A stretch of 40,000 nucleotides of DNA from Pirellulaceae bacterium (GTDB taxonomy: Bacteria; Planctomycetota; Planctomycetia; Pirellulales; Pirellulaceae). A model generated the notes under the pieces. It did not search any database. It was not told where the DNA came from and worked only from the letters and a program-made list of their open reading frames with translations. The stretch covers positions 221,746 to 261,745 of the forward strand of contig JAGYIQ010000003.1 of assembly GCA_018402565.1 (NCBI GenBank). The letters run 5' to 3'. The position numbers were made by a program, and so were the translations under genes. Shown one piece after another: positions 1 to 35,211 of this stretch. Position 1 is the stretch's first letter, and every line of letters starts with the position of its first letter.

Positions 1-2317
1 GCGGTTGATCCCGCAGTTCAAAGTCCACGCTCAGCCCACGGTACAAACCCACAAAAATCGGCAATTGCAAAAAGACAATCAAGCAGCCACTGAAGGGGTT
101 GTACTTGAAGCGACGGAACAGCTCGCGCTGGGCCAAGCCCTGCTTCTCCAAGTTTTCCGGGTACTTTTCCTTGATCTTTTTCATTTCTGGCGCCAGGGCC
201 TGCATCATCTGGGCGTTGATGACCGCCTTGCGTGAGATGGGCATCATCAACAATCGCACCACGACCGTCAGCAAGATGATGGCCAAGGCATAATTGCCAA
301 TCAGGTAATAGAGTGCGTGTAGCAACCACAGCAGGGGCAGCGAGAACATGCCGAACCAACCGAAGCTGACGGTGTCATCCAAGGCATAGGTCGACAGCAG
401 TTCCGGTCGCTTGGGCCCCGCAAACAGATGGAAGGTCTGACGGTAGCCCGGAGTCGCGGAGACGCTGGGGGCCGCATCTTCCGCCTCGGCCGCGTCTGGC
501 TCCCCTGCCGCTGGGCTGGGGGGCAGCGAGACGGTGTTGTAGAGCCGGAAGGAGAGGTCGTGCTTCATCGTGTCTCGACCCTCCAACTTCGCGCCCACGG
601 GGCCAGCGAATCCGCTGTAACAGACGTACGGAGCCGGGCCCGCTGCCGCCTGAGGCGCCGCCTCGTCCGGTGTGGCGGCACCAGCAGCCAGCGCATCAGG
701 AACCACCGCGTCTGGCTGGGCGGTGTCGGGCTGGGCGGTGTCGGACTGGGCGGTGTTGGACTGGGCGGTGGTCGAGTCGCTGGCCGCCGGGGTGGACGCC
801 GGCTTCAGGCCGGTCGGTGTGGTGGCCTGTGGCAACAGGGCACTGGCGAAGTACAGGGTGTCGACCGCGGCGTAACGCACCGTGCGTTCCTCCGCCGAGC
901 TGTCGCGGGGGAAGACCGTGAACACGCCGTTCTTGTCCACCTCGGTGTCGATTTCCGCCCGGCCGTAGAATTGGTACGGACGCGCCGCGGTGCTGGTGAC
1001 CACGTCGCGAGCACCGGCCGAGTAGCCAATCTTCCAAAAGCCGCCGTGCAATTTGATCTGGTACCACCAGCCTTCAATCGATGTGGCGACGGGGCCACCG
1101 AGACGGTAGGCCACATCCAACGCTTCATCGGTCTGGTTGTACAGGTCGACTTCCATTTCTACGTGATAGCCGGCCACCGCCGGGTCGTGACGCTGTTCGG
1201 CGGCAACCCGCGGCAAACGAAACCGCTTGACCACCACCACCGCCCCGTCGCGAGCGCCCGCCGGTTCCGCGGCGCCCGGAACGTCGGCTTCCGGAGCCAA
1301 CACCGCGGTCAAGGCTTCCGAGGTCTTGAGCAGCCGGCGGTAAACCGCCCGAGGCAAGCGGTAAGTGAACTCGACGCAGTCGCGGCCGTCGGCATCCACG
1401 TACTGCCGCCCCTCCCAATTGTCCTGTTGCATGGCCAGGTCCAATTCCTGCCAGCCCGCCAGCCGCGCGTCCTGCAAACTGAAGTCCAAGGTCCCGGGGT
1501 ACTCCTGGTCGCTGACCTTTTCGCTCAGGTTGCGATACTCGGGCCCCAACATCTGCTTGGGTCGATCCATCAAGGTCGCTTGAACGGTGTACTCGCTCCA
1601 ACCCGCAGCCATTGCCGGTGTTTCGGCGGTTGTTTCGGCCGGTGTCTCCGCGGCTGCTTCGGCCGCGTCCCCGTTCGTGGCCGCGTCACCTGCCTGGGAA
1701 TTTTCGCTCAGTGCCGCGTCGGCGGCGGTGGTTGCCGGAATGGGGGCGGCAGCTCCGCTACGACGAGCCAATTGGACGGTCACCGCCTGCCCGGGGAGGG
1801 TCTGTCCCAAGAAATTCTGCAGGTCAAAATCGCTGCGGATGGGCTGTTGGTCGATGCTCAACAAACGATCGCCGACTCGGACCGGCAGCGGCGCGTCTCC
1901 CTGGGCGACGGCGGTGGTCAAGGGACTGCCCGACGGCAGAGCGCCAATCAAGCAGCCCGTGGCATCGGCCTGCAATTCGAGATACCCTAAATATCCCGAT
2001 TTATTCTCGACTTCACGCGTCAGAAACCGACCTTTGGCATCTCGCTGAACCAATTCGATCCGCCGCACGCCGGCCCCACGACTGTCCAACGTCACCAACA
2101 AGCAGTCGCTGCCCGCCGTGTCGAGCGAACCCAACGTGAAGAACTGCCGCGGGTTGTTGGTCGGATGTCGCCGCGGCGCGTCCTCGGCGACGTCCAATCC
2201 TTGCTCCAAGTTGGCGTCGGGTTTGGGTTTCCGCAAACCGAAAGGATCGGCAATTTGCAGGAAAAAAAAGACCGCCAGAAATAACATCATGGTCGTAAAG
2301 AGACGTCGATTATCCAC
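1..2317 (-). CDS. yidC: Membrane protein insertase YidC (C-terminus cut by the window edge; very long periplasmic domain)
   Basis: This gene is absent from the ORF track because it runs off the left edge. My reverse-complement translation is open from GTG 2317 (alternative ATG 2290) down to base 1. It has an N-terminal anchor MMLFLAVFFFLQI. The end reads ...SFGWFGMFSLPLLWLLHALYYLIGNYALAIILLTVVVRLLMMPISRKAVINAQMMQALAPEMKKIKEKYPENLEKQGLAQRELFRRFKYNPFSGCLIVFLQLPIFVGLYRGL, which is the conserved YidC/Oxa1 core (TM2, C1 coiled-coil loop, TM3). Confidence 0.85.
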   Translation of the reverse strand, partial: MDNRRLFTTMMLFLAVFFFLQIADPFGLRKPKPDANLEQGLDVAEDAPRRHPTNNPRQFFTLGSLDTAGSDCLLVTLDSRGAGVRRIELVQRDAKGRFLTREVENKSGYLGYLELQADATGCLIGALPSGSPLTTAVAQGDAPLPVRVGDRLLSIDQQPIRSDFDLQNFLGQTLPGQAVTVQLARRSGAAAPIPATTAADAALSENSQAGDAATNGDAAEAAAETPAETTAETPAMAAGWSEYTVQATLMDRPKQMLGPEYRNLSEKVSDQEYPGTLDFSLQDARLAGWQELDLAMQQDNWEGRQYVDADGRDCVEFTYRLPRAVYRRLLKTSEALTAVLAPEADVPGAAEPAGARDGAVVVVKRFRLPRVAAEQRHDPAVAGYHVEMEVDLYNQTDEALDVAYRLGGPVATSIEGWWYQIKLHGGFWKIGYSAGARDVVTSTAARPYQFYGRAEIDTEVDKNGVFTVFPRDSSAEERTVRYAAVDTLYFASALLPQATTPTGLKPASTPAASDSTTAQSNTAQSDTAQPDTAQPDAVVPDALAAGAATPDEAAPQAAAGPAPYVCYSGFAGPVGAKLEGRDTMKHDLSFRLYNTVSLPPSPAAGEPDAAEAEDAAPSVSATPGYRQTFHLFAGPKRPELLSTYALDDTVSFGWFGMFSLPLLWLLHALYYLIGNYALAIILLTVVVRLLMMPISRKAVINAQMMQALAPEMKKIKEKYPENLEKQGLAQRELFRRFKYNPFSGCLIVFLQLPIFVGLYRGLSVDFELRDQP
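714..773. repeat. 15-bp in-frame tandem repeat x4 inside yidC (encodes TAQ(S/P)(N/D) repeats on the minus strand)
   Basis: Read directly: ctgggcggtgtcggg / ctgggcggtgtcgga / ctgggcggtgttgga / ctgggcggtggtcga. Confidence 0.8.
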
Positions 2318-27700: not shown

Positions 27701-27984
27701 GCACACGACAGAAGCCGACGCTATTTGTCATGGACGAACCGACCACCGGGCTGCATCCGGCAGACATCGACGTGCTGTGGCAATGCTTCGACGCCCTGTT
27801 GGCGGTCGGGCATTCGCTACTGATTATTGAGCACAATGTGCAATTGATGCGCGCGGCGGACTATTTGATCGACCTGGGGCCGGAGGCGGCCCAGCATGGC
27901 GGCCGGGTGGTCGTGACGGGTACCGCGGCGGACGTGCAGGGTTGCCCGCAGAGCTTGACCGGTAAGTTCCTCAGTGAGGGTTGA
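24745..27984 (+). CDS. uvrA: UvrA-family ABC ATPase (excinuclease ABC subunit A or a paralog) with a Lys/Pro/Ala-rich insertion
   Basis: The sequence shows [53 protein letters not shown], zinc modules (CQTCQ; CDGCN...CPTCEGFG; CEKCEGDG...CPECDG), LSGGELQR...[15 protein letters not shown], a second Walker A ([12 protein letters not shown]), and [12 protein letters not shown]...[15 protein letters not shown]. The start is uncertain (ATG 24745; GTG 24688 and 24607 are in frame upstream). Confidence 0.85.
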
Positions 27985-28058
27985 CCTTCTCGGCATTTGT
28001 CAAAGGTCTTAGAATCGGGCCGCGATGGGCCGACACTCATGGGTTGAAAGGTGAAGAC

Positions 28059-28907
28059 ATGACAGCAGCAACAGCGGCCGGAAATTTTGAATCGGGCCTG
28101 TGCCGGGTGGGGTCGGTGGTGATCGGTGCGCAGCAACCGTTGGCTCTGATCGCTGGTCCCTGCGTGATTGAGAGCTGGGAATTGACGCATCAGATCGCTC
28201 AGCAGTTGGTGGACATCTGCGGCCGTCTGGGGGTGTCATTGATCTTTAAGGCGTCTTACGACAAGGCCAATCGGACTTCGGTCGGTGGATATCGTGGGGT
28301 GGGTCAGTCGGCAGGGTTGGAGATTCTGCAGCGGATCGGCCAAGCGTTCCAGGTGCCGGTCACGACGGACGTGCACGAGACGATCCAGGTGCCGGCGGTG
28401 GCGGCGGTCTGTGACCTGTTGCAGATCCCGGCTTTTTTGGCGCGGCAAACGGACTTGTTGCTGGCGGCGGCCGGAACGGGGCGAGCGGTCAACGTCAAAA
28501 AGGGCCAGTTCATGGCGCCGGAGGACATGCAGCACGTCCGCGACAAGCTGGTAGCCGGCGGTTGCCAGGACGTGTTGTTGACCGAGCGAGGGACGTTTTT
28601 TGGGTATGGTCGCTTGGTCAACGACTTGACGGGTTTGGCTGTCATGCGCTCGTTCGCACCGGTCGTGTTTGATGCCACCCACAGTGTGCAGCGGCCGGGC
28701 GGGATGGGGCATGCCACGGGCGGCAATCGCGAGTACGTCGCGCCCTTGGCGCGGGCGGCGGTCGCGTTTGGGGTGGACGCGTTGTTTTTGGAGACCCACC
28801 CGCGGCCCGACGAATCGCCCAGCGATGGGCCGAACATGGTGCCCTTGGACCAGATGGAAGGTCTGCTGCGGCGGCTGTTGGCGGTGCGTCACGCGGCGTC
28901 TGAGTGA
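28059..28907 (+). CDS. kdsA: 3-deoxy-8-phosphooctulonate (KDO-8-P) synthase
   Basis: [12 protein letters not shown]...[14 protein letters not shown]...GLEIL...VPVTTDVHE...[16 protein letters not shown]...[11 protein letters not shown]...LTERG...FDATHSVQ are the canonical KdsA blocks. I prefer ATG 28059; the track TTG start at 27981 would add 26 aa. Confidence 0.9.
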
Positions 28908-29041
28908 ATTCCGTTTCGACAGCGGTCTCGGGCCACTGCTGCCTGATACCGGCTCGTGATGCCGGCTCGTGATGCTGGCTCGTAAGATTGCCTCCTGCCA
29001 ATGACACGTGCGTCGGGGTGGCGGGGTGGCGGGGTGGCGGC

Positions 29042-30082
29042 TTACTCGACCCAGCTTTGGACCAGGAAGTCGGGGCGGGGCGTCCCGAAATGGGCGGTTT
29101 GCCCGGTGGGGCCGTGATGCAGAGTCAGGGTGGCGGGTGCGAACAGTCGCGGGTCGAGTTTGTAGAAGTCGTAGCCGGCTTGGCGAAACAGTTGTAAGAA
29201 CGTCTGACCGTAGCTGGGCGAGTTCTCTGAGATCAGTTGCGGCCCGAGCCTGGACCAGGCCGCCCAATCGCCGTCGACCCACCAATCGACTTGGCCGTGG
29301 TAGATGATGGCGTCGTTGGTCCAGCCGATCGCGGTCAGGCTTTGGCGGGGCACCGGCGGCAGGGGGGCTCGGCCTTGTCCCTGGCGGACCTGTCCCAGGG
29401 GAGCGTGCAGGACCTCGCCCTGATGCAGGGCGGTTTCCAAGGACCGGGCGACGACTTGCAGGGTGCCCGCGGGGCTGGCGGTGCCCGCCACGCACAACAC
29501 CAGTTGTTCGGGGGCGCAGTTGCACTCGGCGGCCATTTGTTCGACCGTGGCGGCGTCGGGCAGTTGATCACTTTCCAAGACGGCCACCCGCGGCGCGGTG
29601 GGCTGCGTTTGCCAGGCGTCGGCGGGGATCTGAAAATGCTGGAACAGGGGTTCGCGGCCGCGGGCCCCGCGGATCGGTCCGGAGACCATGGCGAAGTATT
29701 TGCCGCAGCTCAACGGCCAACCGGCGTATTGAGCGCCCAGACAGGCGGGGAGGGGCTCGGCGGTGCGGACCACGACGTCCCATTGCCACGGGGCGCTCTC
29801 GGCAGCGGGCTCGACTTTCACCTCCAGTCCCCCTCCGCTGGAGACGTTGGCCAGCAATTGTCCGGCGTCGGCGGGGCAGTGGGGGCTGCGAAAGTCTAGG
29901 ACTTCGGCCCCGGCGACCTGCTGCACCTCGATCGACCAAGCCGCGAATTGGGGCCGGGCGGCCTGCAAGGCGGCGGCGGCTTGTTGATTCAAGCGGAGCA
30001 CATCCAGGAGCCCGTTTTCCGGCGATCCGTGCTCCAGCGATCCGGCCTCCGAGTGGCTCTCAGTAGTGGGGTGGTTTTTCAT
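29042..30082 (-). CDS. mch: Methenyltetrahydromethanopterin cyclohydrolase (Mch)
   Basis: These blocks match Mch as I recall it from methylotrophs and archaea: PACLGAQYAGWPL, YFAMVSGPIRG, SPAGTLQVVARSLETALHQ, APLPPVP, AIGWTNDAIIYHGQV and SPSYGQTFLQLFRQAGYDFYKLDPRLFAPA. Confidence 0.8.
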   Translation of the reverse strand: MKNHPTTESHSEAGSLEHGSPENGLLDVLRLNQQAAAALQAARPQFAAWSIEVQQVAGAEVLDFRSPHCPADAGQLLANVSSGGGLEVKVEPAAESAPWQWDVVVRTAEPLPACLGAQYAGWPLSCGKYFAMVSGPIRGARGREPLFQHFQIPADAWQTQPTAPRVAVLESDQLPDAATVEQMAAECNCAPEQLVLCVAGTASPAGTLQVVARSLETALHQGEVLHAPLGQVRQGQGRAPLPPVPRQSLTAIGWTNDAIIYHGQVDWWVDGDWAAWSRLGPQLISENSPSYGQTFLQLFRQAGYDFYKLDPRLFAPATLTLHHGPTGQTAHFGTPRPDFLVQSWVE

Positions 30083-30299
30083 GGGGCAGATTTTCCTCTT
30101 GGCTTTGCAGGCGTTGGTCCAGCAGGCCTTGGCGGCGTTCGGCGACGGCCAGCCGTAGCTGCAGCCGCTCCAGATCTTGTCGCAGGTCGATGATGACTTG
30201 ATTGAGAGTTTCGATCAGCCTTTGGTCGTGGCAAACGGTCTCCTCCAACTGCTGCAGGCGGCGAGACAAGTCATCGAGGGGATCGGGGACCGGATTCAT
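30060..30299 (-). CDS. slyX: SlyX-family coiled-coil protein
   Basis: The 79-aa protein reads LSRRLQQLEETVCHDQRLIETLNQVIIDLRQDLERLQLRLAVAERR, which matches the SlyX pattern (LE..vafQe..ie.LN..v..qq..i..L). Its 3' end overlaps the mch start by 23 nt. Confidence 0.65.
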   Translation of the reverse strand: MNPVPDPLDDLSRRLQQLEETVCHDQRLIETLNQVIIDLRQDLERLQLRLAVAERRQGLLDQRLQSQEENLPHEKPPHY

Positions 30300-30585: not shown

Positions 30586-30737
30586 AGCCCCTGGGTTAAT
30601 GGCCCCCGGGTTACTGGGTCCCGGGTTATTTGACTTGGGGTTCTTTGGCCCTGGGTGGTTAGTGGGTCGTCGGGCGGGCGGAGTGAGATCACAGTCGCTT
30701 GTCGCAAGGAGCTGTATTGGTGGCCGAGCAAGCCGGT

Positions 30738-32414
30738 ATGGCGGATCAATTTGGCGACAAGCGGGATGGGGCGGAAGCGGCCGATCCCTACGTGGTGGTT
30801 GCGCGGCGGTATCGGCCGCAGTCGTTTGAGCAACTGGTGGGTCAAAATCAGGTATCGCGGGCCTTGGGCAACGCGATTGAGACCCAGCGAGTCGGGCATG
30901 CTTATTTGTTCACTGGAGCGCGTGGGGTGGGCAAGACCTCCACGGCTCGAATCTTTTCTAAGTGCTTGAATTGCGAGACGGGGCCGACGACCCAACCCTG
31001 CGATCGCTGTGATGCGTGCCAAGCCATTTCTCTGGGCGAGGACGTCGACGTGTTGGAGATCGACGGCGCCAGCAATCGGGGGATCGACGAGATCCGTCAG
31101 TTGCGTTCCTTTGCCAGCGTGCGGCCCAGTCGCTCGCGGCACAAGATCTACATCATCGACGAAGTTCACATGTTGACCAAAGAGGCCTTCAACGCCTTGT
31201 TGAAGACCTTGGAGGAGCCGCCGCCGCACGTCAAGTTTATTTTTTGTACAACGAATCCAGAAAAGATTCCGATTACGGTTCTCAGCCGTTGCCAGCGGTT
31301 CGATTTTGCCCCGGTGGTGGCGGACGAAATCAAGGATCGCTTGAAGTTTATTGTCGACGCGGAGGGGGCCGAGGCGGAAGATGACGCGTTGACCTTGCTG
31401 GCACGGCGAGCGGGCGGCTCGATGCGTGACAGTCAATCGCTGTTGGAGCAATTGCTGGCTTTTGCGTCGGGCAAGATCACCGTGCAGTCGGTGCACCAAA
31501 TGCTGGGTACGGCACCGGGCGGCCGGGTTGAGACCTTGGTCCAAGCGATCGCCAATTCGGATGCCGGCGCGGCTTTGGAAGAGATTCACAATTCCATTCG
31601 CGAGGGGGCGGATGTCGGGCAGGTACTGGAACAATTGTCGGGCCATGTGCGGGACTTGATGGTCTTGAGTGTTGGCGGCAGCCCCGAGACATTGCTGCAA
31701 TTGGGTCCGGGAGACGTCGCGCAGGGACAGGTCTTGGCCCAGCAGATGGGGACGGCTCGCTTGTTGGCCACGTTGCAAGTTTTTGACTGGGCTTTGGCGC
31801 GGATGCGACAGAGTACTCAGATTCGTTGCTTGCTGGAGATTGCCGTGGTGCAGGCCTGTGGATTGGCCGCGCTGTCTTCGCTGGCGTCAGCCATCGACAC
31901 GGTGGGGCGTTTGACGGCGGGAGCGGGCAGCGGTCCGGCGGCGCCCCCCAGCCGATTGTCGCTCGGGCCGACCGCGGGAGCGGACGCCCAGGAAAAAAAA
32001 AACGAACCGATAGCTAGTACTGGGGTTACTCGAGAGCCCGAGCCCTCTCGGCTGGCGACCTCCTTCCATTCTACTGCGCCCAACGGACCCTCCGAGTCGG
32101 AATCAAAGTCGGCTCAGTCCGTCGGGCACCCGTCGGCGGGACCGGACCTGCCCGAGGCCGGCGGTGGGTCTAGTATCCCTCCGGTTGGCTTGTCGCCGGT
32201 CGTGGCGAGTGCACAGGTTTTCGCCCCGGTCATCGCCCCGGCGCCCAACTTGTCAGCAGTGGCTGCCGAAGCGGGGCTGGGTTCTGCGCCGGCCGCGGGG
32301 CTGGGTTCTGCGCCGGCCGCGGGGCTGGGCCCTGCAGCTGGCCGCGGGGCTGGGTTCTACGCTGGCCGCGGGGCTGGGTTCGGAGTTGGGTCAGGCGCCG
32401 CCGGGTGGCGGTGA
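30738..32414 (+). CDS. dnaX: DNA polymerase III subunit gamma/tau (frame-0 product)
   Basis: The sequence shows ARRYRPQSFEQLVGQNQVSRALGNAIETQRVGHAYLFTGARGVGKTSTARIFSKCLNC (Walker A), the zinc module CxxCxxC, YIIDEVHMLT (Walker B) and VLSRCQRFDF (SRC motif). Start candidates are ATG 30738, GTG 30720 (with aaggag 9 nt upstream) and TTG 30699. The A10 run and the frame break are covered in the findings. Confidence 0.9.
   Translation: MADQFGDKRDGAEAADPYVVVARRYRPQSFEQLVGQNQVSRALGNAIETQRVGHAYLFTGARGVGKTSTARIFSKCLNCETGPTTQPCDRCDACQAISLGEDVDVLEIDGASNRGIDEIRQLRSFASVRPSRSRHKIYIIDEVHMLTKEAFNALLKTLEEPPPHVKFIFCTTNPEKIPITVLSRCQRFDFAPVVADEIKDRLKFIVDAEGAEAEDDALTLLARRAGGSMRDSQSLLEQLLAFASGKITVQSVHQMLGTAPGGRVETLVQAIANSDAGAALEEIHNSIREGADVGQVLEQLSGHVRDLMVLSVGGSPETLLQLGPGDVAQGQVLAQQMGTARLLATLQVFDWALARMRQSTQIRCLLEIAVVQACGLAALSSLASAIDTVGRLTAGAGSGPAAPPSRLSLGPTAGADAQEKKNEPIASTGVTREPEPSRLATSFHSTAPNGPSESESKSAQSVGHPSAGPDLPEAGGGSSIPPVGLSPVVASAQVFAPVIAPAPNLSAVAAEAGLGSAPAAGLGSAPAAGLGPAAGRGAGFYAGRGAGFGVGSGAAGWR
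32268..32388. repeat. 24-bp tandem repeat x5 in the dnaX 3' region (AAGLGSxx); the third unit is 25 nt
   Basis: Units start at 32268, 32292, 32316, 32341 and 32365 (gccgcggggctgggttctgcgccg and variants). Unit 3 is gccgcggggctgggccctgcagctg, which is 25 nt. Confidence 0.85.
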
Positions 32415-32808
32415 ATCTTTGCTTGATCAGTATCGGGCGGCGTTTCAGTCGATCGACGGCATGATTCGGGACTTGGCCACGAGCTGTGTGGCGGTGGAGC
32501 CTGTCACCCCGAATCACTGGCGGGTATTGATGGAGAACGAGTATTTAGCGGAGCTTTGCCAGCGTCAGGATCGGCGTCAACAGATTGAAGGGGCGGTGGA
32601 GGCGACGGTGGGTCGGCGAATTCGCATCGATTTCGGCTATCGCGCGGAGGCTCAACCGCATGGTGGCTTGGTGGCGAAACCCACCAGCAAGACGCAGGCT
32701 TTGCGGGACCTGCAGGAGCTGCCATTTGTGGCCAAACTCAACACCATTTATAGCGCAGAGTGGGTGGAACTGCTACCGGCTCGGCCGCGAAAAAAGGCTG
32801 ACCACTAG
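32341..32808 (+). CDS. DnaX C-terminal region encoded in the +1 frame relative to dnaX. It is either a separate ORF, a frameshifted continuation, or a sequencing indel.
   Basis: This is part of track ORF 32164..32808. From 32341 this frame continues the AAGLGS repeat and then encodes a non-repetitive 130-aa domain (SLLDQYRAAFQSIDGMIRDLATSCVAVEPVTPNHWRVLMENEYLAELCQRQDRRQQIEGAVEATVGRRIRIDFGY...). Upstream of 32341 the same frame reads as Arg-rich nonsense. Confidence 0.55.
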   Translation, partial: AAGLGSTLAAGLGSELGQAPPGGGESLLDQYRAAFQSIDGMIRDLATSCVAVEPVTPNHWRVLMENEYLAELCQRQDRRQQIEGAVEATVGRRIRIDFGYRAEAQPHGGLVAKPTSKTQALRDLQELPFVAKLNTIYSAEWVELLPARPRKKADH

Positions 32809-33688
32809 AGCGTGATTGAAACGCGCGTTTGATTTTCGTGCGAACTGCAAAAAATATCGATTTCACACGCAAGAAAATCTCTTCACACGGCCCGAGGCCA
32901 TTGACACCCTAATCAGCTGGAATAAAATGCGGGCTACAGGCCAACAGTCTGTACGCTGGTCGTTTAAGGGATTGACCACGCGAAAAGCTCGCAGAAAATG
33001 AGCAACCTGGTTGCTCGCCGCTTTCTGGACCATAGCACTCTGTTCGAACTTGGTGGTTCCTGACCCGAACTGACCTAACTCAAGAAGCAGTGTGCGATCC
33101 AAAGATTGGATAGCGAAACACGTTGACCGCCTGGAAATGGGTGCGGCGAAGGTTCATTGTCAGATGGGCTGATCATCGCATTTATAATGAGGTAGTAAAT
33201 CGTGTGGGTACTATCGCAGCCCAGCTGAGATAGGCCCGGTGCAAAAATACCAAGTAATCAGCGTTTGGCTGGCGTATTGTGGGGGAGCGATACGGCGGTG
33301 AGGCGACGGTGTGTGGATGGGCGGATTACGATTCCTGTTACGTGCTGTTTTTTGTGCGTCGCCGGGATAGTGACGAGTCGATCTTGATGACTTGGTTTGG
33401 CTGCGCCGCAGGTCCTCCGCGATAGCCTTGATTGGGAATTCTTGCTACAGGTCCTCTTGCAGGAGAGTGACGTTGTAGCGCGAGGGTGTTGCCGGTGGGG
33501 GATTCGGGCCGTGTAAGTTTGGGCCATCTTTTGGATGGCGCCTGACGGGCGGTTTGGAGTCGTCGAGGGAACGGGCTTTCGAGCTTTACTATGGGACTGT
33601 GATTTGGCTGTTCGATGCAGCGATGGTTTCAAATTGGAACGATCGACTGCGTGTACCTTTGTTCTCGTTTTTTGGAGGTTCGTGTTTC

Positions 33689-35077
33689 ATGACCAAGCGA
33701 TTGATTGGTTCTTTGATGGCTGCCTGCTTCGCGGCATGCGCTCCCATCGCTCAAGCAGATTCGCCTTGTGGCTGCGGCCAAGTGGCGACCCCGGTTTACA
33801 GTGGCTGTGCCACTTCGGTTGCCTCGCCTTGTGGCACCGTTGCCAGTGATTGTGGTGGCTGTGGCGTCACCTATCAAACTCGGATCGTTTACGAAAACCA
33901 AATGGTCACCGAGATGCAAAAGGTGATGACCACCGAGTGCCATCCGGAGACTCGTACGGTTGACGTGACGACCTACACTCGTGTTCCCAAGACCGAGACC
34001 AAGACTCGCACCTACACCGTGATGGTCCCGACCCAACAGGTCAAGGACGTCACCTACACCGTGTGCGTACCGGTGACCGAAGACGTGGAGCAAAAGTTCC
34101 AGGTCTGCGTTCCTTACACCGAAGAAATCGACCAAACCTACACCGAGATGGTGACCAGCCAAGAGGTCCGCAAGGGCACTCGCATGGTCAACGAAAACTA
34201 CACCGAGACCTTGGTTCGCACCGTGACCAAAGACATGGGTACTTGGGAATGCCAAACCTACGAAGTTCCGGCCAGCAGCTGCGGTTCGGCCGCCAGCTCC
34301 TGCGGTTCGGCTGCGGGTAGCGGCTGTGGCATCTTCGGTGGTCGCCTGTTCAGCCGCTGCGGCGCTCGCCGTTGTGGCGGTGCAGCTTCGGCTTGCAGCA
34401 CTGGTTGCAGCACTGGCTGTGACACCGGTTGCAGCACTGGTTGCAGCACCGGCTGTGACACTGGTTGCGCCCCGGCGACCCGCACTGTGACTCGCCGCGT
34501 GTGGGTTCCCAACTGTGTAACGGAAGAAGTTCCTTACACCGTGACCCGCTGCCGTCAAGTTGCACAAGAGTACGAGTACACCGTCAACGTCTGCACCCCG
34601 GTCGAGAAGACCCGCAAGGTGACCGTGCGACGTACTCGCATGGAAGAGCAAGTTCGCACCGTCAAGGTCACCCGCATGGAACAACAGCAACAGGTCAAGC
34701 AAGTGACCTACTGCGTCATGGTTCCTGAGACCAAGACCGACACCTACGACGTGACCACCTACGAGTGCGTTCCGACCGTGACCCAGAAGCAGATCACTGT
34801 CATGGTTCCGGTTCAAGTCGAGAAGGAAGTTGCTGTAACTCGCTGCATCCGCGTCGCCAAGGAAGTCCAAGTTCCGGTCAGCACCGGCTGCAACACCGGC
34901 TGTGGCGTTTCCGCTTGTGACAGCGGTTGCTCGACCGGCCGTCGCGCTCGCTGCGCCCGTCCTCGTCGCAGCTGTGGCCTGTTCAGCCGTCTGCGTGGTG
35001 GTCGCTGTGGCGCCGCCGCCAGCAGCTGTGGCACCAGCAGCAGCTGTGGCACTGCCACCAGCAGCTGCGGTTGCTAA
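33689..35077 (+). CDS. Secreted YTV-repeat, cysteine-rich cell-envelope protein
   Basis: ATG 33689 is preceded by ggagg at 33674-33678. The signal peptide is MTKRLIGSLMAACFAACAPIAQA. Two blocks carry many xYT(V/E) beta-strand repeats (TYTVMVP, TYTVCVP, PYTEEI, TYTEMV, PYTVTR, EYTVNV...). They are flanked and separated by Cys/Gly/Ser/Thr low-complexity segments (CSTGCSTGCDTGC x2), and the C-terminus is ...SSCGC. The track ORF start 33554 adds a non-signal leader. Confidence 0.8.
   Translation: MTKRLIGSLMAACFAACAPIAQADSPCGCGQVATPVYSGCATSVASPCGTVASDCGGCGVTYQTRIVYENQMVTEMQKVMTTECHPETRTVDVTTYTRVPKTETKTRTYTVMVPTQQVKDVTYTVCVPVTEDVEQKFQVCVPYTEEIDQTYTEMVTSQEVRKGTRMVNENYTETLVRTVTKDMGTWECQTYEVPASSCGSAASSCGSAAGSGCGIFGGRLFSRCGARRCGGAASACSTGCSTGCDTGCSTGCSTGCDTGCAPATRTVTRRVWVPNCVTEEVPYTVTRCRQVAQEYEYTVNVCTPVEKTRKVTVRRTRMEEQVRTVKVTRMEQQQQVKQVTYCVMVPETKTDTYDVTTYECVPTVTQKQITVMVPVQVEKEVAVTRCIRVAKEVQVPVSTGCNTGCGVSACDSGCSTGRRARCARPRRSCGLFSRLRGGRCGAAASSCGTSSSCGTATSSCGC
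34394..34468. repeat. 36-bp in-frame tandem repeat x2 (CSTGCSTGCDTG) in the YTV gene
   Basis: Read directly: tgcagcactggttgcagcactggctgtgacaccggt / tgcagcactggttgcagcaccggctgtgacactggt. Confidence 0.85.
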
Positions 35078-35174: not shown

Positions 35175-35211
35175 AAAAAACGCATCGGACCATGTCCGAT
35201 GCGTTTTTTTT
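35175..35211. terminator. Bidirectional Rho-independent terminator between the convergent YTV and secretin genes
   Basis: The perfect 10-bp stem is cgcatcggac (35181-35190) / gtccgatgcg (35194-35203) with a 3-nt loop. It is flanked by an A-run (35175-35180) and a T8 run (35204-35211), so it is U-tailed in both orientations. Confidence 0.85.

Follow-up and report, generated by a model that had tools for sequence, protein, structure and literature searches.

A run of ten adenines in a Pirellulaceae dnaX gene as a probable Thermus-type recoding site for gamma and tau

We found a run of ten consecutive A residues (A10) within dnaX, the gene for the gamma/tau clamp-loader subunit of DNA polymerase III, in a 40 kb stretch of Pirellulaceae DNA, here called the window. 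This run is probably a selected recoding signal of the type known from Thermus thermophilus dnaX, where transcriptional slippage leads to the production of both gamma and tau. The analysis was computational and proceeded from sequence. What carries this reading is the retention of the run, together with a stop codon close behind it in each of the two shifted reading frames, in relatives whose surrounding sequence has drifted.

The A10 run in dnaX

The open reading frame (ORF) that hosts the run extends from 30699 to 32414 on the + strand. It matches the Pfam models DNA_pol3_delta2, DNAX_ATPase_lid and DNA_pol3_gamma3, up to residue 387, and scores above the cut-offs of both NCBIfam TIGR02397 (dnaX_nterm; 428.8 bits, cut-off 250) and PRK05563 (441.5 bits, cut-off 400). 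On the evidence of these matches, the ORF is dnaX. The true start of the gene is probably GTG 30720, six codons 5' of ATG 30738, because the deposited protein (P0001) and its relatives begin MAEQAG. Six residues are therefore added to the numbering in an earlier reading of the window, which was made from the letters without database searches and counted from ATG 30738 (here, the sequence-only reading).

In frame 0, the phase of ATG 30738, the run and its surroundings read CAG GAA AAA AAA AAC GAA CCG ATA GCT AGT (QEKKNEPIAS), and the lysines of the run are K420–K421 when counted from ATG 30738 or K426–K427 when counted from GTG 30720. Past the run, the −1 frame reads AAA CGA ACC GAT AGC TAG, with its stop at 32015–32017, and the +1 frame reads ACG AAC CGA TAG, with its stop at 32011–32013. 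When the window was read again, the run (31993–32002), frame and stops of the sequence-only reading proved correct to the base. Its placement of the site just past the clamp-loader domains also agrees with the Pfam result, as the run starts at codon 419, 31 codons into the linker that follows the end of domain III (residue 387).

Ten A residues had been called very unusual in this sequence, and the A10 run is in fact the single homopolymer of at least nine of any base in the 40 kb. Matches to A8 number five, at three sites, with 0.62 expected from dinucleotide shuffles. From random positions of the window's dnaX, the next stop is a median of 33 codons away in the −1 frame and 41 codons away in the +1 frame, and the probability that both come within four codons is 0.0155. 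Outside the run, 11 of the 12 lysine codons of dnaX are AAG. Across the window genes, AAA makes up 34% of lysine codons (AAG 66%) and GAA 45% of glutamate codons.

Conservation of the run and stops in relatives

When the conceptually repaired DnaX protein (see below) was used as query, thousands of DnaX relatives were found. At the DNA level, we compared loci from 80 species-representative genomes and 80 metagenome contigs, among the matches listed, and from the nine closest relatives. dnaX was located in each locus by tblastn and examined around the end of domain III, from codon −20 to codon +120. A close set was made up of the 68 loci that are at least 50% identical to the window's N-terminal part.

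A run of 9–11 A residues was present in the linker stretch of 54 of the 68 close loci (27 A10, 24 A9 and three A11). Of the remainder, one has A8 and 13 are without a run. A7 is absent, and the run, where there is one, therefore reaches at least nine bases in 54 of 55 loci and is in no case a bare heptamer. Runs of at least nine A or nine T residues are concentrated at this place: the 27.6 kb of linker has 57 of them, the remaining 92 kb of dnaX has none and 253 kb of flanking sequence has one, an approximately 500-fold enrichment of A9 or longer runs in the linker. The stops are also unusually close. The larger of the two distances from run to shifted-frame stop has a median of 4.5 codons, compared with a per-locus null median of 45.5, and the closeness of the two stops is significant (per-locus P < 0.05) in 72% of loci. 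Both the number of run-bearing loci and these distances lend support to the proposal in the sequence-only reading that this is a gamma/tau recoding site.

Among the closest relatives, which are 74–97% identical to the window in the N-terminal part, the run and both shifted-frame stops are kept in 10 of 10, at nearly equal offsets. The +1-frame stop is no more than 9 nucleotides (nt) from the run in all 10, as TAG or TGA, and the −1-frame stop is 10–15 nt past it in all 10, as TAG, TAA or TGA. The flanking 45–75 nt in these relatives are 33–44% identical (ungapped, anchored on the run). A comparison of this kind had been put forward in the sequence-only reading as a check, and with run and dual stops retained while their flanks drift, a chance choice of codons is not borne out.

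An alignment of the 22 best DnaX proteins gives a similar picture, as the linker that follows domain III cannot be aligned save for one island, E-K-K-N-E. The near-identical DnaX proteins of sister species (P0002, P0121, P0122, P0123 and P0125; 639–649 amino acids (aa)) vary in how many times the linker repeats the Ala-Pro dipeptide, and its length therefore changes quickly while the EKKNE/A10 island stays fixed.

The run occurs in all three codon phases across the 54 loci (33, 19 and two loci), and the residues encoded therefore differ between loci. The lysines of the run are always encoded by AAA and never by AAG. As AAG is the preferred lysine codon, its avoidance together with the use of three phases indicates selection on the nucleotides and not on the peptide. 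As far as can be judged by comparison of these loci, the pattern as a whole shows selection on the nucleotide run and on the function, though not the sequence, of the stops in both shifted frames, rather than on the encoded peptide.

Loci carrying the run belong to the Pirellulales, Gemmatales, Planctomycetales and Phycisphaerae, and include the isolates Aporhodopirellula aestuarii and Gemmata sp. IIL30. In the more distant loci (<50% identity), a run of A9 or longer was found in 26 of 94. A run of A9–A12 with both shifted-frame stops within a few codons is present in L037, L061, L077, L124, L125, L139 and others, from Omnitrophota, Terriglobia, Verrucomicrobiota and other non-planctomycetes, and the Thermus-type layout thus looks widespread beyond the planctomycetes. 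A further planctomycete dnaX (L008) has no A-run in its linker and has a C9 run (2153–2161).

In two metagenomic loci the arrangement appears to be reversed. L097 (3693–3703) has A11 and L098 (1389–1397) has two adjacent A9 runs, and in both a frame-0 stop is found 3–10 codons past the run, after which it is the −1 frame that encodes the tau linker and C-terminal domain. In this two-ORF layout it is tau that would need slippage. At an efficiency of approximately 50%, one changed base can be enough for the two products to exchange roles (PMC5009743), and the layout of L097 and L098 matches, by analogy, the role reversal expected of such a site. Homopolymer assembly errors are an alternative account of it. 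The window itself does not have this arrangement, as its frame 0 stays open past the run.

Proposed mechanism of recoding and the alternatives

From the anatomy of the site and the literature on the Thermus and Escherichia coli RNA polymerases, the following course of events can be proposed. On ten template T residues, RNA polymerase would hold an all-A:T hybrid that can realign, and an mRNA population with 8, 9, 10, 11, 12 or more A residues would result. Transcripts with 10 or 13 A residues would keep the frame and give tau. Other numbers would lead the ribosome into the −1 or +1 frame and to a stop after 3–4 codons. The outcome would be gamma-like proteins of 430–432 aa (approximately 46 kDa) that have the ATPase and clamp-loader domains I–III and are without the linker and C-terminal polymerase-binding domain (see Table 1). 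Slippage of the polymerase at the run, and with it the existence of two DnaX proteins, is what we infer from the conserved layout.

The sequence-only reading had named two possible mechanisms, slippage as in T. thermophilus and −1 ribosomal frameshifting as in E. coli. The first is favoured here, because both shifted-frame stops are kept, the run is at least nine bases long, and there is no conserved hairpin, no conserved Shine–Dalgarno (SD)-like motif and no Rfam match, and it is the stimulators of the second that are lacking. The downstream RNA of the window shows no excess of structure (fold z = +0.77), and over the 54 loci the median folding percentile is 0.525, with no conserved hairpin. 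On these two values, a downstream structure was rejected as a frameshift stimulator. Upstream of the run, folding first seemed to be in excess, as 37% of loci were below the 10th percentile of other segments of the same genes. The signal was gone when composition-matched shuffles were used (median z −0.06) and is therefore due to GC-rich context and not to structure; an upstream hairpin of the kind that stimulates slippage was rejected accordingly. SD-like tetramers upstream of the run are not enriched (9 of 54 loci, 17%, versus 11% background). The window does have GGGAG 12 nt 5' of the run, but among relatives this motif is kept solely in the 97% identical sister. An Rfam scan that included the dnaX frameshift element returned no match at E up to 10. 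The E. coli heptamer A_AAA_AAG is not in the window, which has A_AAA_AAA followed by AAC instead.

That gamma is made mainly by the ribosome, either through programmed −1 frameshifting on A_AAA_AAA or A_AAA_AAC or through sliding in both directions on poly(A), is accordingly unlikely, though it is the most serious of the alternatives. The heptamer A_AAA_AAA is in the correct phase of frame 0, the −1-frame stop is conserved, and the GGGAG of the window is where an SD-like element might be sought. Furthermore, E. coli dnaX shifts −1 at the equivalent place (PMC5009743), and orthologous dnaX genes use either mechanism (PMC3711429). However, the +1 stop, which −1 frameshifting does not need, is kept as tightly as the −1 stop, and the run is almost always nine or longer though seven bases would be enough for the heptamer. 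Shifting in E. coli at A_AAA_AAA and A_AAA_AAC is also much below that at A_AAA_AAG (PMC5009743).

The two other alternatives dispense with recoding. The A-run could encode a conserved Lys-Lys(-Lys) peptide with a role in the protein, such as a protease or interaction site, or could be a chance choice of codons. EKKNE is, after all, the conserved peptide island of the linker, and in Caulobacter gamma arises by proteolysis of tau (PMC5009743; bioRxiv 10.1101/2022.11.10.516041). A peptide motif does not explain why dual shifted-frame stops are retained with changing triplets, and the exclusive use of AAA in the run, where AAG predominates in the window genes and in the rest of dnaX, the change in flanking residues that comes with three phases, and the enrichment of A9 or longer runs all speak against it, making this account very improbable. 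The least probable is that the run is a hypermutable tract at the DNA level, subject to replication slippage or phase variation, or a sequencing artefact, and is not an expression signal. Replication and some sequencing chemistries readily introduce indels into homopolymers of 10, L097 and L098 are length or frame variants, and there is an apparent 1 nt indel in the same gene 330 nt downstream. Against this, the run keeps the frame of a linker that is collinear with those of relatives (EKKNEPIA, compared with EKKNEPIV in P0002 and EKKNEPIA in P0012) and is present in dozens of independent assemblies from different projects. On/off switching of an essential replication gene would be lethal, and nine other window genes match Pfam models, most of them near full length, which argues against general indel noise.

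Some observations weigh against Thermus-type slippage as we propose it. The relatives without a run, for example Anammoximicrobium L002 and the Thermoguttaceae loci L011 and L048, mean that the device must be dispensable or replaceable. The loci share a phylogeny, and the counts given above are therefore not counts of independent events. The propensity for slippage varies with the polymerase. A run of at least nine A residues includes the heptamer A_AAA_AAA, and ribosomes can shift or slide on poly(A), which may make a translational contribution to gamma. Finally, tau is itself out of frame downstream of the run in this assembly, and the tau:gamma logic cannot be read from it directly.

The tau C-terminus, gene context and known systems

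Frame 0 remains open for 137 codons past the run, collinear with the linkers of relatives. The frame-0 product named in the sequence-only reading ends at TGA 32412–32414 (564 aa, 58 kDa) without the tau C-terminus, a point which that reading missed. The conserved C-terminus is in the +1 frame, extends to TAG 32806–32808 and is 85% identical (E = 6e-77) to residues 518–645 of the sister-species DnaX P0002. The change of frame lies in a 24 nt tandem repeat. Units 1–2 encode AAGLGS in frame 0 and units 4–5 encode AAGLGS in the +1 frame. Unit 3 (32319–32343) is 25 nt, with the extra base near 32331–32336, approximately 330 nt 3' of the run, and the tau frame therefore moves from frame 0 to +1 at this unit.

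The extra base is either a recent 1 nt insertion or a repeat-associated assembly error. Were it an error, tau would be an ordinary protein of 695 aa and 73 kDa. The nine other window genes that were checked are unsplit, so general assembly indel noise was rejected as the cause of the frame break, and an error specific to the repeat is possible. Sister-species proteins do not have the 24 nt repeat and differ in (AP)n copy number, and they therefore do not settle the choice between insertion and error. The A10 run cannot rescue the frame break because the +1 frame is closed at 32011–32013. Rescue of tau by a shifty-stop +1 event at CGG TGA (32409–32414) was also rejected, as CGG would not be able to re-pair at GGU and the AAGLGS units switch frame at unit 3 and not at the stop.

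An AlphaFold model of the tau C-terminal domain (approximately 130 residues) has a mean predicted local distance difference test (pLDDT) score of 77. Its fold matches are weak (E 0.004–0.08) and include the E. coli tau C-terminal domain (5fku_E, 2aya and 5fkv_E), the KH-like DnaA domain I and DciA. The model is consistent with this domain being the polymerase-binding domain V of tau.

If the insertion is real, there would be no single-frame tau. Standard decoding would yield a 58 kDa protein without the polymerase-binding domain, and tau would depend on a second, compensating event, a +1 shift or slippage in the 24 nt array, in addition to gamma production at A10. We give this very little credence. 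Much more probable is that Thermus-type slippage is an ancestral, phylum-wide route to gamma in the Planctomycetota that is also used at the Omnitrophota, Verrucomicrobiota and Terriglobia loci, with the roles sometimes reversed.

Table 1. Features of dnaX around the A10 run (window positions) and products predicted for different numbers of A residues in the mRNA
Feature	Position	Strand	Basis
dnaX part common to gamma and tau: domains I–III and first ~30 linker codons	30720–31992	+	Pfam, NCBIfam, N-termini of relatives
A10 slippery run, GAA AAA AAA AAC in frame 0; proposed RNA polymerase slippage site	31993–32002	+	Direct read, conservation
TAG stop, +1 frame; would end translation of mRNAs short of one A or with two extra	32011–32013	+	Direct read
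TAG stop, −1 frame; would end translation of mRNAs with one extra A or short of two	32015–32017	+	Direct read
tau-specific hypervariable Pro/Ala/Ser-rich linker, frame 0	32003–32330	+	Protein alignment: EKKNE the sole conserved island
24 nt tandem repeat, 4.6 copies, AAGLGS-type units	32271–32381	+	Tandem Repeats Finder; three-frame translation
TGA closing frame 0 as assembled; 564 aa, 58 kDa product without tau C-terminal domain	32412–32414	+	ORF reading
Conserved tau C-terminal domain, +1 frame relative to dnaX start; absent from predicted gamma	32395–32808	+	Identity to P0002, model
Predicted product, 8 A: 431 aa, ...EKKRTDS			
Predicted product, 9 A: 430 aa, ...EKKTNR, 45.9 kDa (from GTG 30720)			
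Predicted product, 11 A: 432 aa, ...EKKKRTDS, 46.2 kDa (from GTG 30720)			
Predicted product, 12 A: 431 aa, ...EKKKTNR			
Predicted product, 13 A: in frame, one extra Lys			

Upstream of dnaX, the gene order DAHP synthase, methenyl-tetrahydromethanopterin cyclohydrolase (MCH), SlyX, dnaX (window 27978–30299) is common to close relatives (L081, L162, L163, L165 and L166). Two 15 nt tandem repeats were found in this region, one just upstream of dnaX (30587–30628, 2.8 copies) and one within the MCH gene, which is on the opposite strand (30018–30050, 2.2 copies). The 3' side of dnaX is occupied by an ORF (33479–35077) rich in Cys, Thr and Ser, with planctomycete-specific YTV repeats (Pfam PF07639) and low-complexity CGS/CST stretches. 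The only two other homopolymers of eight bases in the window are at 2262–2269 (+), close to the junction of two minus-strand ORFs, and at 35204–35211 (T8 on the + strand), between the YTV-repeat gene and the next gene.

Three routes to gamma are known: frameshifting in E. coli, slippage in Thermus and proteolysis in Caulobacter. Throughout a whole phylum, A9–A11 and dual stops have persisted over a very long time beside a changing linker. This is strong evolutionary evidence of selection for the short form, and of slippage by RNA polymerase as a common rather than exotic route to it. Such genes are filed in annotation as a single gamma/tau protein with no second product. While the mechanism itself will not surprise a specialist, its breadth and the clean dual-stop signature should be useful, and cultured, genetically tractable planctomycetes gain a simple, testable recoding site. 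In a search of the literature, no paper tying Planctomycetes dnaX to slippage was found, though a report outside the literature searched is possible. Baranov et al. (PMC1088944) set aside slippage that truncates the product as hard to judge by comparison.

Caulobacter crescentus reaches the same pair of DnaX proteins by another route, partial proteolysis of tau by ClpXP, which, by analogy, shows that the gamma/tau pair is selected for. Unlike the route proposed here, it is post-translational and has no nucleotide-level signal. In E. coli, a −1 ribosomal frameshift occurs at A_AAA_AAG and is accompanied by an SD-like element on the 5' side and a hairpin on the 3' side (PMC5009743). The window shares with it the gene and the relative position of the site, a shift site that is A-rich and codes for lysine, and a gamma without the C-terminal domains (431 aa in E. 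coli, 430–432 aa predicted here). In contrast, the window is without the 3' AAG, a conserved SD-like element, a downstream hairpin or an Rfam match, and the +1 stop is conserved as well.

Antonov et al. 2013 (PMC3711429) described two-ORF dnaX genes that have A10 and depend on recoding to make tau. Their run likewise marks the gamma/tau boundary and aligns with the Thermus motif, and transcriptional realignment was inferred from sequence only. The difference is that the window's run is in frame with the tau linker and standard decoding passes it, the two-ORF layout being seen in the relatives L097 and L098 only.

The T. thermophilus dnaX has A9 with a stop close to it in each non-zero frame, and approximately 50% of the product is gamma, made via transcriptional slippage (PMC1088944, PMC5009743); the site is that of Larsen et al. 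2000, as described in the same two papers. As in T. thermophilus, at least nine A residues are present on the sense strand of dnaX past the clamp-loader domains, with stops near in both non-zero frames, and any change in the number of A residues other than by a multiple of three is predicted to give a truncated gamma with no RNA structure needed. The window differs in having A10 instead of A9, in coming from a mesophile of the Planctomycetota, and in its tau frame, which is broken 330 nt downstream. In T. thermophilus tau is read straight through the run, whereas in the window frame 0 continues through the run and the C-terminus is in +1 after the 25 nt unit. The site in the window would thus be the same kind of device as that in Thermus, and what the comparison presented here adds is its conservation across the phylum.

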